Shown piece by piece: positions 23,164-45,883 of a stretch of 64,000 nucleotides of DNA; positions within the stretch are counted from its first letter, which is position 1, and every line of letters begins with the position of its first letter. The DNA is from Octopus vulgaris (Eukaryota). Under the pieces are notes generated by a model that ran no database searches, was not told the DNA's origin, and saw nothing but the letters and a program-made list of their open reading frames with translations. The position numbers and the translations under genes are program-made. The stretch is from contig OX597824.1 in assembly GCA_951406725.2 (NCBI GenBank), forward strand, positions 41,416,001-41,480,000, given 5' to 3'.

Positions 23164-24187
23164 ATTGGCTTGAAGTACATATTTCCTTTAGCGCATGAGG
23201 TACGTGGGCTGTAGATTGGCTTGGTGGTTGGAAAAAAGGAATGAAATTTAATGAAAAATATTTGGGGGAAGAAAGAAAAAGAAAGAGTTATTCCTTATAG
23301 ATTGATTTTAGCTGTGAGGTGTCCATCATTCTCAAATTAAAAAAAAATGTCCACCTCGCCAATTGCACTCATAAGGGCAGTATAAGAAAATTACAGTTAA
23401 AAGTTCAGGAATATGCCCAGAATTTTAAGAATTGTGAATTTTAAGAATGATTCTCTTCTCTGTCAAGTAGAGTCTGCATTTCCTACTTCCATTAAGATAC
23501 GGCCTATGTCGTTCCTGCAACTTTCATTTGATGGTATAGAGCTTTACGTCTGCTTTTAATCGACATATATTGCTAGCTAGAGTTCTGATATTACGCCTTT
23601 CCTGGATCCTGCAAGAGAATCTGTAATTATTAAACCTGATTTTAAAGAGTCCGTCTGTTTGTCCCGGCATATCTCTGCTCATGCGTCATCCCATTGGTGC
23701 TGGTCAACGCTAGTTCTGTTTCGTAAACCACAGCTTTTGTGCTAGTTCTTCTAGTTCTTCTAGACACGCATGCTGTAAATCCTAAATGAACATCCTGTTT
23801 CTGCAGCAGTTAGTGAACTTTCTGACTTGTTGTATGCGATAACTAGTTATAAACTTGACGATATATATGTTATGTCGAGCTCGGCATGTATATTCAAACA
23901 TACATACATACATACATACATACATACATACATACATACATACATACATACATACATGTATACACACTCGTTGTGTAACAAATTACCACTGACATTGGCT
24001 TGAAGTACATATTTCCTTTAGCGCATGAGGTACGTGGGCTGTAGATTGGCTTGGTGGTTGGAAAAAAGGAATGAAATTTATTGAAAAATATTTGGGGGAA
24101 GAAAGAAAAAGAAAGAGTTATTCCTTATAGATTGATTTTAGCTGTGAGGTGTCCATCGTTCTCAAATTTAAAAAAGAACATGTCCAC
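23164..24187 (-). mobile_element. Penelope-like element 3' part: decayed GIY-YIG endonuclease flanked by about 190-bp direct repeats
   Basis: Near-identical repeats at 23164-23354 and 23994-24187. The minus strand at about 23870-23440 gives, across frameshifts, TKAVVYETEL...RYAG...KIRFNNYRFS...RPYLNGSRKCRLYLTEKRII. Confidence 0.75.
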
Positions 24188-24722
24188 AATATATATACAG
24201 CTGTAACAAGAGAAATTTGCCCAATATCCTGAAGCCGCACAATGAGCTCGAAACCGGAACCATGTGTTTGCAAAGTAAATTCTTTCTCTCCACAGTCATC
24301 AGTTTTTCGTCCGTTTTTTACGTTGTAATTTCAAATGTCACCGAGGAAAGCTTTGACATTCATCCTTTCGGAGTCAATAAAATAAATACCAAACGGACAC
24401 ATAGTTCACTATAATCGACTTAGCCTCTTTTTCGAAATTGCTGGCCTTGTGAAAAATATGAAACCTATGTATGTTTTCTTTTTGATTTAATACTATTTTC
24501 ATTGATTGCCATATATTATGACCAAAAAGTGACCAAAAGTTTGGAACATTAAAAAAAAAAGACTAAAATTGTTATGTCCAAGTACAGTTCAATTCAAATG
24601 TATTCAATATATATATTTGGACATTTAATATAAAAATTCTAATTTTCAAACCTATGTTCCAACCTTTTGATCAAGTAATAATATTTTGCAAAATTAAATA
24701 TAACTTTGGGCATTTAATATAA

Positions 24723-24761
<39 letters not shown>

Positions 24762-24950
24762 CGTACGAGTGGCTGTGTGTTAAGTAGCTTGTTTACCAGC
24801 AACTTGGTTCCGGGTTCAGTCCCACTGCGTGGCACCTTGAGCAAGTGTCTTATACTTTAGCCTCGGGTCGACCAAAGCCTTGTGAGTAGATTTGATAGAC
24901 GGAAACTGAAAGAAGCCCGTCGAATATATGTATATATATATATATATATA

Positions 24951-25854
24951 TATAAATTAACAATTGAGCATAAAATCTTTAAAAGAAATTATCAGTAGTC
25001 AGCGTGAAAAACCTCGTAAGAGAAAAAATCCGTAAAATCTTCCTCTTTGAAAATATTCATTTATATTATATTGAGGGTACTACTATTCGTAGATACCAAC
25101 ACGCTAAGAGGGACCAATGCGGTCAAAACTACTAAAAATAAACAAAATTTTACCGAATGCAAAACTTCAAAACACATCATTTCAAAAAAATCTTCCACTT
25201 TGAAAATCTTCATTTATATTATATTGAGGTAACTGAATTCTTTTTTAAAATGATGTGTTTTGAAGTTTTGCATTCGGTAAAATTTTGTTTATTTTTAGTA
25301 GTTTTGACCGCATTGGTCCCTCTTAGCGTGTTGGTATCTACGAATAGTAGTACCCTCAATATAATATAAATGAATATTTTCAAAGAGGAAGATTTTACGG
25401 ATTTTTCTCTTACGAGGTTTTTCACGCTGACTACTGATAATTTCTTTTAAAGATTTTATCCTCAATTGTTAATTTATATTTTTCACCGGAATAGTTCAAT
25501 ACTGAATTTTTATTCCGACTAGACAATTTGTTACCGAAATGCATTGCGAATAAGCCCGCCATTTTCATAGATATGTAAAGATAAACATTCGTACATGCTA
25601 CGACGAATTCTACGGTTGGCTATCGAGCTTGTAATTTTATGTTTTCTCTTATATTTCTTGAGTTTGTTGCACTGACGAACATGAAATGCATATTCTGCAT
25701 TAAATGCGAAATCACATGTGATATGTAACTGAATTCTTTTTTAAAATGATGTGTTTTGAAGTTTTGCATTCGGTAAAATTTTGTTTATTTTTAGTAGTTT
25801 TGACCGCATTGGTCCCTCTTAGCGTGTTGGTATCTACGAATAGTAGTACCCTCA

Positions 25855-25862
<8 letters not shown>
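24951..25862 (+). mobile_element. Hammerhead-bearing non-coding retroelement: 496-nt monomer, terminal redundancy and 5' inverted arm
   Basis: 25229-25366 is repeated at 25725-25862. 24951-25190 is the reverse complement of 25238-25478. Both flanks are (TA)n. Confidence 0.85.
25666..25729 (+). ncRNA. Type I hammerhead ribozyme with intact core
   Basis: GUUGCA-CUGACGA-[ACAU..AUGCA uauuc UGCAU..AUGC]-GAAA-UCACAUGUGA-UA-UGUAAC. Stem I is 6 bp, stem III is the 12-nt palindrome AUCACAUGUGAU, and predicted cleavage is after 25723 (AUA). Confidence 0.88.
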
Positions 25863-25945
<83 letters not shown>

Positions 25946-27103
25946 TTGTGTGTCTGTGTTTGTCTCCCCAGCATCGCTTGACAACCGATGCTGGTGTGTT
26001 TACGTCACCGTAAACTAGCGGTTCGGCAGAAACGGACGGTAGAATAAGTATTGGGCTCGATTTGTTCGACTATATCCTTCAAGGCGATGCCCCAGCATGG
26101 CTGCAGATCAATGAATGAAACAAGTAAAAGGGTTAAAAAAAAGGAAAGTAAGTGATTCTCTGCTTCCTGTTAAAAGGAAAGGTTTTGAATGACGATAGAC
26201 TGGAATCCTATTTAGGAAAGATTTCTCTCAGTGTCTTAAAGTCACTGAAACTAGAAGCACCCCTACAAAAAATCAAATCAAATAAAATAGAATAAAAAAA
26301 AAATAACACCACCATATGAAAGCATTATCACGACAAATAATAGGTATTTTTACAGAACAGGATACAAATATCTCTTAATGTAAAGCAACATACTTCATCG
26401 CGGCACAAGTAAACGCTACAAAATTACATCACCACCAACACACATACAACATATACATATAAACACATACTATGTAGCAGACAACAACGTACATACACAT
26501 TTTACCACGAAACAACACCTTATGTTGCAGCATATAAACATACTATAACGTCACTCAACAACGAGTGAACCACAAATATAAGCTGCAATACATACAACTC
26601 AAGCAGCACACAAAATAACATACACACACACACACATACACACACACACACACACTGCCACAACACTGAGAAGAGAACAATTATACTCGCAGGAAAAATA
26701 CATTACAACACAACACAAGTTACGCAACGCAGACAACGCCGCAGCCCATACCAAACCACACCACACCGCATAACACAACACCACTACATAATACAACACC
26801 ACAATATCAAATGACAGACAAAACCAAAAGCATACTGCAGCACCACATTACAACAAATATTTCACAAGTAATATAATATACAGCATCCACCGCTCTTACA
26901 CGCAATAAACAAACAAAACGACAAAGAAAACCAATAAATACAAAAATAACTTAAGAGCAAGAAATATTTCTTGAAATAAACAAACAAAGAAAAAGTCCGC
27001 CAGGAAACTTTCCAAAAATGCCCTTGCTAGCGACGGCAGAAATTCCTGAAGACGATACATGTAAAAGATTAACGATATTTACAGTAATGGCTGACTTTGT
27101 GCC

Positions 27104-28988: not shown

Positions 28989-29435
28989 GGCGAGCTGGCA
29001 GAATCGTTAGCACGCCAGGCGAAATGCTTAGCGGTATTTCGTCTGCCGTTACGTTGAGTTCAAATTCCGCCGAGGTCGACTTTACCTTTCATCCTTTCGG
29101 GGTCGATAAATTAAGTACCAGTTACGCACTGGGGTCGATGTAATCGACTTAATACCTATGTCTGTCCTTGTTTGTCCCTTCTATGTTTAGCCCCTTGTGG
29201 GTAATAAAGAAATAGGTATTTCGTCTGCCGCTACGTTCTGCGTTCAAATTCCGCCGAGGTCGACTTGCCTTTTATCCTTTCGGGGTCGATTAAATAAGTA
29301 CCAGTTACGCACTGGGGTCGATATAATCGACTTAATCCGTTTGTCTGTCCTTGTTTGCCCCTCTCTGTGTTTAGCCCCTTGTGGGTAGTAAAGAAATAGG
29401 TATTTCGTCTGCCGTTATGTTCTGAGTTCAAATTC
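28989..29435 (+). mobile_element. SINE family A with tandemly reiterated body (about 2.2 copies)
   Basis: ggtatttcgtctgccg recurs at about 29033, 29215 and 29399. Core gcctttcatcctttcggggtcgataaa. Confidence 0.88.
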
Positions 29436-43511: not shown

Positions 43512-44460
43512 AATCGTGTTCTCCGTCTGTTTAACTCGCTCCCCTTCCCTTCTGGCCCCTCTCAGCTTCTGTTAACCCATGACATTACAAGTTTGTATAC
43601 GGTTATCCCACACAACGAAGAACTTCTTGTGCTAAACGCTTCCTTGACCGTCAGCCCGACCCTCGACCTGACACCTCCACACTTTTCTCTCTTGCCGACT
43701 TTACTCTCCCCTTCAATTGCTTCTCGTTTGTGGGAGAGTTTTACCAACAATCTTCGGGGTTGGCCATGGGAACGAGAATAGGCCCCAACTATGCGAACCT
43801 GTTCGTTGGCTACACTGATGCCCAAATTTTCTCACAATTCACTGGTCCCACTCCCGAGCTATATGGTCGTTATATCGATGACTGTATCGGCACAACCTGT
43901 CTCTCCCGCGAACAACAGGAGTCCTTCCTCTCCTTTGTCCAATCCTTCCATCCTGCCTTCGAATTCTCCTGCGCTATCTCTAACTCTACCGTAAAATTTC
44001 TCGCCATTTCTGTCAGCATACATCACTCCGCTCTCACTACCCCCATCCACTACAAACACACTGACTCTCATTCCTGCATTTACTTCTCCTCCTCCCATCC
44101 TATCCACACCAAGCTCTCCATCCCCTATTCTCAATTCCTCCGTCCACGCAGACTCTGCAGTGATGACCGTAACTTTGAGATTCAGTCTCAACTTATGGCT
44201 CGCCACTTCATCCTACGTGGCTATCCGTTCATCACTTTGCATCCTGCCATTCCCCGGCACGATCTATAGACCGTGCCTCTGCTCCTTGTTTTCGCACTCG
44301 CCCCACCCTTACCTATCTCCCGTTTTCTCTCACCTACCATCCCTCCATATTGTCCCTCTAACGCACCATCCTCCGAGTCTTCCGGCGACTCCAGACCGAC
44401 CTCTCCACCTCGCATATCTATCCTAACCTACCACTTCTCTTCTTCAAACGAGCACATAAC
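43512..44460 (+). pseudogene. Penelope-like element reverse transcriptase fragment, frameshifted
   Basis: DITSLYTVIPH, FYQQSSGLAMGTRIGPNYANLFVG, RYIDD, YKHTDSH, SSSHP, SIPYSQFLR-RRLCS. Confidence 0.92.
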
Positions 44461-45234: not shown

Positions 45235-45883
45235 ACCACAGACTGCAGACGACTTCAGAATCTTCTGCAACTCTTCTGGACGGTCACCTTGTTTAAGTTG
45301 GTAAATGCTGCCATAATCCTTGCCTTCAGTTCATCTTTGGTGTGATAAGGAGTTTTATTGGTCTCTTCCTCAACTGCGCCCCACACATGATAATCAACGG
45401 GGTTGTAGTCTGAGGAGTTAGGTGGCCAGATGTTAGAGGTGATGTGATTGTAGAAATTGTCTGGCAGCCATGACTGGGTTTTCCTGCTTGTGTGGCATGG
45501 TGCAGAGTCCTGTTGCCAGACATAGGATCTTTCAGCAGCCACGCACTTGACCAAAGGCAGCACTATCTCTTCTAGGCATTTGATGCAGGCCTCTGTGTTG
45601 AGTCGGAGGCTGTGTGGGAAGATGACTGGAGGCACAACGTTGCCATGACTAGTAATCGACCAAACACCATGATGTTGACTGGATGTTTGATTTTTATCAC
45701 CCTCAGAATGATACCCAAACACTCTGAATGCCAAGCAGTACAGCATGTCGTTTCCAAATTTCTGGCAGAGTGAATTGCGTCATGGTGCTGACCCTATTAT
45801 ACTGCGTAGTCGACAAAATCAAAAACAGACAATGCGCAGGCGCAAAATTAAAAATATAAATCTGTGTCAATGTACCCATCGCA

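Follow-up and report, generated by a model that had tools for sequence, protein, structure and literature searches.

A head-to-head Penelope-type insertion in octopus DNA whose long arm starts beside a predicted hammerhead cleavage site

In the excerpts of PMC8557442 and PMC3846280 on which we draw, endonuclease-positive Penelope-like elements insert as units in which a partial tandem gives two direct repeats (pseudo-LTRs) and an adjacent inverted, 5'-truncated copy is joined head-to-head at its 5' end. One end of such a unit is longer, a tail is optional, the (TA)n target carries no clear duplication, the joints show microhomology, and a hammerhead with a palindromic stem III lies upstream of the 3' ends. 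The role of the hammerhead in these elements is described as unclear in the same excerpt of PMC8557442, and Penelope hammerheads are reported to cleave poorly in vitro (PMC4209133, excerpt). AT-rich DNA is cut and extended on both strands by a Penelope-like protein, which begins copying at an internal site of the RNA; for PAc, a Poseidon element of Anolis, cleavage was dispensable, the enzyme mainly used uncut RNA, RNA reads neither began nor ended at the cut, and fixed internal starts, located at least about 85 nt 3' of the hammerhead cut, matched genomic ends (PMC11167929, excerpt). Metazoan non-LTR retrozymes are non-coding, low-GC units with one type I hammerhead each, head-to-tail continuity, a well-folded predicted circle and very many copies (PMC7229834 and bioRxiv 10.64898/2026.07.22.740005, excerpts); among Xenopus retrozyme dimers, one of nine was cleaved in vitro (same bioRxiv excerpt). 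In R2, an autonomous site-specific element with an HDV-like ribozyme and cleavage shown in vitro, the self-cleavage site coincides with the 5' junction of copies, and the microhomology joints are variable where the cut is the element end (PMC3774820, excerpt). A literature search, with most subscription papers outside its reach, found no report of Penelope-like or retrozyme genomic 5' ends at a hammerhead cut. Recently active Penelope families in an octopus are listed in PMC13282606, and the portions of its text and supplement that were searched contain no mention of a ribozyme or retrozyme.

The window analyzed here is a stretch of 64,000 nucleotides from Octopus vulgaris (contig OX597824.1, positions 41,416,001 to 41,480,000). 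Within it, an insert at 24950-25864 interrupts the (AT)n tract of a dispersed host repeat, which we take to be SINE-like. In five other copies of this repeat in the window the two halves lie 26-82 nt apart with microsatellite alone between them, whereas here they are separated by 1022 nt. Positions within the 496-nt unit are numbered as u = window position - 25227, such that u1 (25724) is the first base 3' of the predicted cut and u496 is 25723. The locus is made up of the following parts.

24762-24922, plus strand: left half of the dispersed host repeat (the target), from its spacing in the five other window copies
24923-24953, no strand: left portion of the split (AT)n target tract, from the sequence
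24950-25189, minus strand: inverted arm A, u14-252, the reverse complement of 25241-25479 with 3 differences
25187-25229, minus strand: 43-nt junction patch, u127-169, a direct copy of 25034-25076 with 2 differences
25229-25864, plus strand: forward arm, 636 nt or 1.28 units of 496 nt (u2-496 followed by u1-141)
25229-25368, plus strand: 5' copy of the 140-nt direct repeat, pseudo-LTR-like, identical to 25725-25864
25475-25479, plus strand: TATAT patch, u248-252, the family's recurrent 3' end, predicted single-stranded
25660-25736, plus strand: predicted hammerhead of type I, with its core fold at 25666-25729 and 6 bp added to stem I beyond a bulge
25711-25722, no strand: perfect 12-nt palindrome forming stem III, which could allow a dimeric hammerhead
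25725-25864, plus strand: 3' copy of the direct repeat; its last bases, an ATATA patch (u137-141), run into the right (AT)n tract
25865-25944, no strand: right portion of the split microsatellite, (AT)n(GT)n, from the sequence
25945-26130, plus strand: right half of the host repeat, from comparison with the other window copies

The 3' ends of the insert face host DNA and the 5' ends meet in its middle, indicating that the start of the forward arm is an inversion joint. Arm A extends from an outer (3') end that is the recurrent end of the family to an inner (5') end at u14-17, and the junction patch shares 3 nt with arm A and 1 nt with the forward arm. As G25229 is common to the patch and the forward arm, the latter starts at u2 or u3, which is 1-2 nt 3' of the predicted cut and one unit upstream of the intact hammerhead. 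The original prediction had placed this start within 1 nt of the cut and one 496-nt monomer upstream; the geometry stands, but the offset is 1-2 nt and the position is an internal head-to-head joint rather than a junction with host DNA. Its proposal that the two redundant copies are identical is borne out at 140 of 140 bases, 496 nt apart. The insertion had been called young on these grounds, and because the inverted pieces differ from the forward arm at 5 of 282 nt, the case for youth is confined to those 140 bases. All five differences fall outside the direct repeat, a distribution that is not significant (P 0.13). Of the four ATATA/TATAT pentamers in the unit, two carry the outer ends of the insert, in stretches predicted to be unpaired, and the TATAT patch at u248-252, with pairing probabilities of at most 0.19 at 37 °C, is likely a priming site. 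A priming helix between the 3'-end patches u136-147 and u242-253, which are complementary at 11 of 12 positions, was considered and rejected, its predicted pairing probability being 0.0. An assembly or library artefact was also rejected, because the outer ends abut the two halves of one host repeat and the end of arm A recurs in the family. The insert contains no stop-free frame longer than 75 aa, the GC content of the unit is 31%, and no older internal dimer was found within its 496 nt.

The insert is a non-coding, many-copy Penelope-type insertion with two head-to-head arms in an (AT)n tract. It has the pseudo-LTR partial tandem, the inverted copy, the fixed 3' end in microsatellite DNA and the remaining features listed above for Penelope-like units, with the difference that no reverse-transcriptase or endonuclease reading frame is present. 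The extra stretch on one end is 111 nt compared with 30-40 in the units of PMC8557442 and PMC3846280 (excerpts), and the 5' repeat at 25229-25368 begins at the cut, so that the catalytic part of the hammerhead is missing from it, whereas Penelope-like elements have hammerheads in both flanking repeats according to the excerpt of PMC4209133. With PAc the locus has in common the AT-rich target, the extension of both strands and the fixed internal starts; the PAc starts are not homologous to the cut DNA (PMC11167929, excerpt), in contrast to both ends here, which have five AT-alternating bases in common with the target. The traits given above for non-LTR retrozymes recur as well, with a unit of 496 nt compared with 170-400 nt (PMC7229834, excerpt) and 51-972 (bioRxiv 10.64898/2026.07.22.740005, excerpt). 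Unlike retrozymes, the locus holds only 1.28 units and the full junction anatomy of the Penelope type, its single complete hammerhead stands against the two that define a retrozyme, and it is known from sequence alone. The coincidence of a self-cleavage site with a 5' junction is reminiscent of R2, which differs in ribozyme class, autonomy, site specificity and demonstrated cleavage; at this locus the end lies inside the insert, at an inversion joint, and cleavage is only predicted. By analogy, the unit resembles both Penelope-like insertion units and non-LTR retrozymes in the way it would work, and the locus is ordinary in kind, a Penelope-type non-coding insertion with one suggestive feature.

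That feature depends on the predicted hammerhead, in which a type I core (CUGANGA, GAAA and NUH) is surrounded by three stems, with stem I open-ended. The motif is comprised of a 6-bp stem I, CUGACGA at 25672-78, GAAA at 25708-11, a stem III of 4-5 bp and an AUA triplet, the last of which is present in a natural hammerhead (PMC1636495, excerpt). Cleavage is predicted between 25723 (u496) and 25724 (u1), so the coordinates originally proposed for the ribozyme, 25666-25729 with cleavage after 25723, hold. When both strands of the window were scanned with a descriptor, two matches emerged, this one at 25672 with the full core and one poor match; the chance rates of 1 in 20000 resampled 496-mers for a strict descriptor and 18 in 20000 for a relaxed one were obtained with thresholds set after the motif had been seen. 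Rfam returned no match at gathering score in the window, and no hammerhead family was among the 15 matches with E up to 10 in 24900-25950, where the miRNA-like matches arise from the inverted repeat and the microsatellites. This copy has an A10.1-C11.1 mismatch at 25679/25707 and therefore lacks the G10.1-C11.1 closing pair of stem II, which is called highly conserved in the excerpt of PMC4209133; we infer that the mismatch slows cutting, and its presence in the retained hammerhead fits read-through by the reverse transcriptase. The stem III palindrome is predicted to form a self-duplex of -15.8 kcal/mol, the hairpin alone being unstable, and a dimeric hammerhead is predicted at -35.8 kcal/mol versus -19.2 kcal/mol for two monomers (37 °C). 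The monomer fold is dominant solely in a short context, with a stem I probability of 0.9 in 86 nt and of 0.0-0.24 in longer contexts. Six further pairs extend stem I to 25736 (u13), next to a U run at u14-19, and the duplex of stem I with its extension is predicted at -8.3 kcal/mol. When circularized, the unit folds better than shuffled sequences (z -3.4, 60 shuffles).

Other copies of the family were sought in the contigs of public sequencing runs, of which 24 were listed; 20 contain the stretch (11 studies under 7 organism labels), and runs X21-X24 hold next to none of its words. Contigs of four of the 24 runs, three DNA and one RNA-labelled, were aligned to 25300-25795. The 1090, 1415 and 696 contigs that aligned in the three DNA runs indicate a large family, and a sharp 3' end at 25479 (u252), followed by (AT)n, recurs in 5, 20 and 12 of them (37 in total), with a 3' end at u141 absent from the rows listed. 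Among variants of at least 5% there are 21 variable places, seven within the 64-nt hammerhead at 25666-25729. None of the seven occurs in the 32 positions of the core, stem I and stem III (P 0.005) and six occur in the 14 unconstrained positions (P 0.00025), statistics in which the subfamilies are not independent. This pattern of variation supports a hammerhead under selection, and the conservation of the catalytic core implies that cutting matters. Among the variants are N7 C>U and a substitution at 25679 by which the G10.1-C11.1 pair is regained, the latter at 51%, 8% and 14% of depth in the three runs, where depth does not equal copy share. The pieces of the insert all carry the same letters at 25393 and 25429; by depth these letters are the rarer ones in most runs, which points to a single source lineage. 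The joint that goes back 496 nt in the contigs repeats the continuity already visible in the window. The RNA-labelled run contributed a single contig of depth 2.2 that crosses the site uncut; it may be DNA, and contigs cannot show ends or circles. A depth step at the cut was rejected as evidence, as depth is no copy number and bins vary up to 77-fold within one run; the mean depth of u1-242 is above that of u260-496 by 1.5, 3.2 and 1.5 in the three runs. Scans with exact patterns gave 0 loci in metagenome contigs and 0 in viral contigs. At 25394-25435, the match of many contigs begins only at about 25394-25402 or breaks off at 25435, with letters that are related but different; these are probably from a diverged sister family with the 3' part of the unit in common.

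The position of the forward-arm start has to be judged against the frequency of such a coincidence. The chance that a start falls no more than 2 nt from the cut in either direction is 5/496 (about 1%), the junction is the one that drew attention and was chosen after the fact, and a coincidence of this size would recur repeatedly in a family with very many copies. The sole opposite-strand joint in the three DNA runs, 25500/25738 in run X1, fits head-to-head geometry only (2 letters in common as reported, compared with 1 for tail-to-tail), and its arms start at u15-17 and u271-273. With the selecting end and the junction patch left out, two of the three remaining arm starts fall in the first 17 nt 3' of the cut, giving P of about 0.004 if the starts are independent and uniform and with a 17-nt window set post hoc. 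None of the four arm starts lies just upstream of the cut, and the end of arm A may depend on that of the forward arm. Among the 18 of 215 rows of loose ends listed for the contigs, a weak test, none lies at 25724-25741. Subtracting the 131 contigs in these rows from the 340 partly aligned ones leaves about one contig per remaining row, if each has one loose end, so that there is no pile-up at the cut comparable to the 37 contigs at 25479; this counts weakly against a strong peak of host junctions at the cut. Contigs may hold too little element sequence at single-copy junctions to be aligned, and we infer that rare element-to-element joints were probably pruned in assembly. The joints listed for the three DNA runs do not include the junction of this locus; as contigs drop rare forms, its absence says nothing on its youth or polymorphism. 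An 8-mer at 25232-25239, 25728-25735 and 25501-25508 occurs in the unit at u5 and u274 only, and the forward arm and one arm of the X1 joint each begin 1-3 nt upstream of it; it may reflect chance or a sequence-linked stop or joining signal.

We favor, with a probability of roughly 0.55, a reading in which the long arm would have been copied up to a 5' end made by the predicted hammerhead cut, in the course of two target-primed reverse transcriptions. A helper Penelope-like protein would nick both strands within (AT)n, and each nicked 3' end would pair with an AU-alternating unpaired patch of the element RNA (u248-252 and u137-141). A donor with two tandem hammerheads would yield partly cut RNA. 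The forward arm would be copied from RNA cut at the upstream hammerhead, the enzyme reading through the downstream one with the A10.1-C11.1 mismatch and running off at u2-3, and arm A would be copied from u252 to u14-17, as expected of the fully cut 3' product. The two cDNA ends would then be joined by microhomology with the 43-nt templated patch, a few bases being lost. The daughter keeps one hammerhead only, so that the family must also use uncut or circular RNA, and cut-ended copies would be one class among others. The original prediction, reverse transcription to the ribozyme-made 5' end of a more-than-unit RNA, thus explains the forward arm well and accommodates two further starts within 17 nt downstream; it depends, however, on one junction of about 1% chosen post hoc, and a stall of the enzyme predicts nearly the same position. 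A genomic footprint of in vivo self-cleavage, as the locus had been called, is accordingly the leading reading and not a finding.

Taking cut and fold of the hammerhead together, it is quite probable that the ribozyme rather than chance caused the coincidence. The fold alone could set the ends if the reverse transcriptase stalled at an uncut hammerhead, either at the extended stem I reaching u13 or at the 12-bp palindrome duplex of a dimer reaching u495. This is a real rival because the near ends match the edge of the extended stem I, with arm A ending at u14-17 and the X1 joint at u15-17 beside the last pair at 25736; the palindrome duplex ends 1 nt upstream of the cut, and uncut RNA is the dominant substrate of the lizard Penelope-like protein (PMC11167929, excerpt). 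Trimming after run-off, a stall at a fold and a microhomology hot spot account equally well for the u14-17 ends. We nevertheless regard a stall as unlikely, as the enzyme traversed an identical intact hammerhead at 25660-25736 in the same arm, the -8.3 kcal/mol of stem I with its extension is modest and the stem has a low probability in long contexts, and the conserved catalytic core implies that cutting is important. Random 5' truncation followed by microhomology joining that happened to fall beside the cut, and was noticed for matching, is somewhat less probable in our estimate. The very large family (696-1415 contigs per DNA run) offers many junctions at about 1% each, Penelope-like insertions are often 5'-truncated (PMC8557442, excerpt), and the listed loose ends show no peak at the cut, one known end lying at u271-273. 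The two further ends within 17 nt of the cut speak against chance, though their P of about 0.004 is post hoc and six T runs of at least 5 are spread across the unit.

The junction might instead mark a palindrome in DNA or RNA rather than an RNA end, if a single cDNA, synthesized from an antisense RNA or a circular monomer, folded back close to the cut-site palindromes and used itself as template, giving the inverted arm. Self-priming at palindromes has been proposed for head-to-head Penelope joints (PMC3846280, excerpt) and circular templates for more-than-unit copies (PMC4209133, excerpt); the folding of the circularized unit, the 140/140 identity, which fits one template read twice, and the minority letters common to all pieces agree with such a route. 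A circle has no end at the cut, however, and arm A stops on its outer side precisely where the family's 3' end recurs next to (AT)n, as a priming site predicts. The five differences that all lie outside the direct repeat also argue against it, though without significance, and we give a fold-back or circular template little credence. Returning to copying up to a cut-made end, a more general form may be put forward tentatively. In the germ line, the RNA serving as template for reverse transcription would have its 5' end set by the hammerhead cut; two such RNAs, possibly tied by the 12-bp palindromic stem III of a dimeric hammerhead, would be copied, one from each strand of the same break, the copies would abut head-to-head at the cut or immediately 3' of it, and the weakened A10.1 hammerhead would permit read-through to more-than-unit copies. 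If this is true, the many genomic copies would directly document that hammerheads cleave in vivo during the Penelope cycle. In a large family with a sharp 3' end, a conserved hammerhead that occurs naturally with either G10.1 or A10.1, and copies whose starts lie at the cut or close to it, genome data alone could be used to ask whether cut RNA is a real template, which would tie retrozyme-like units mechanistically to Penelope-type two-ended insertion; if the breakpoints are random, the locus is an ordinary Penelope-type insertion.

Several further features were observed in the window. Inside the insert, a 39-codon hydrophobic frame begins at the first ATG 3' of the cut (25249-25369, plus strand), and a second frame, of 15 codons including three cysteines, begins at an ATG where stem II starts (25681). 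The main frame of PAc begins at stem II (PMC11167929, excerpt). The two short frames are possibly relics of the 5' end of a helper element. Outside the insert, a decayed and frameshifted reverse-transcriptase fragment at 43583-44400 (plus strand) has a weak RVT_1 match and atlas matches at 0.96 to eukaryotic RVT_1/HTH_animal clusters, and its motifs look, in our judgment, Penelope-like. The descriptor scan found no hammerhead near this fragment, and no sequence link between it and the insert was detected. A DDE transposase fragment lies at 45255-45779 (minus strand; DDE_3, E 1.8e-05, below the curated cut-off). Just left of the insert, 23164-23345 and 23994-24175 form a 182-nt direct repeat, 98% identical and 830 nt apart, and a partial tandem with a unit of about 183 nt is located at 29033-29435, with a diverged copy at 24330-24422.
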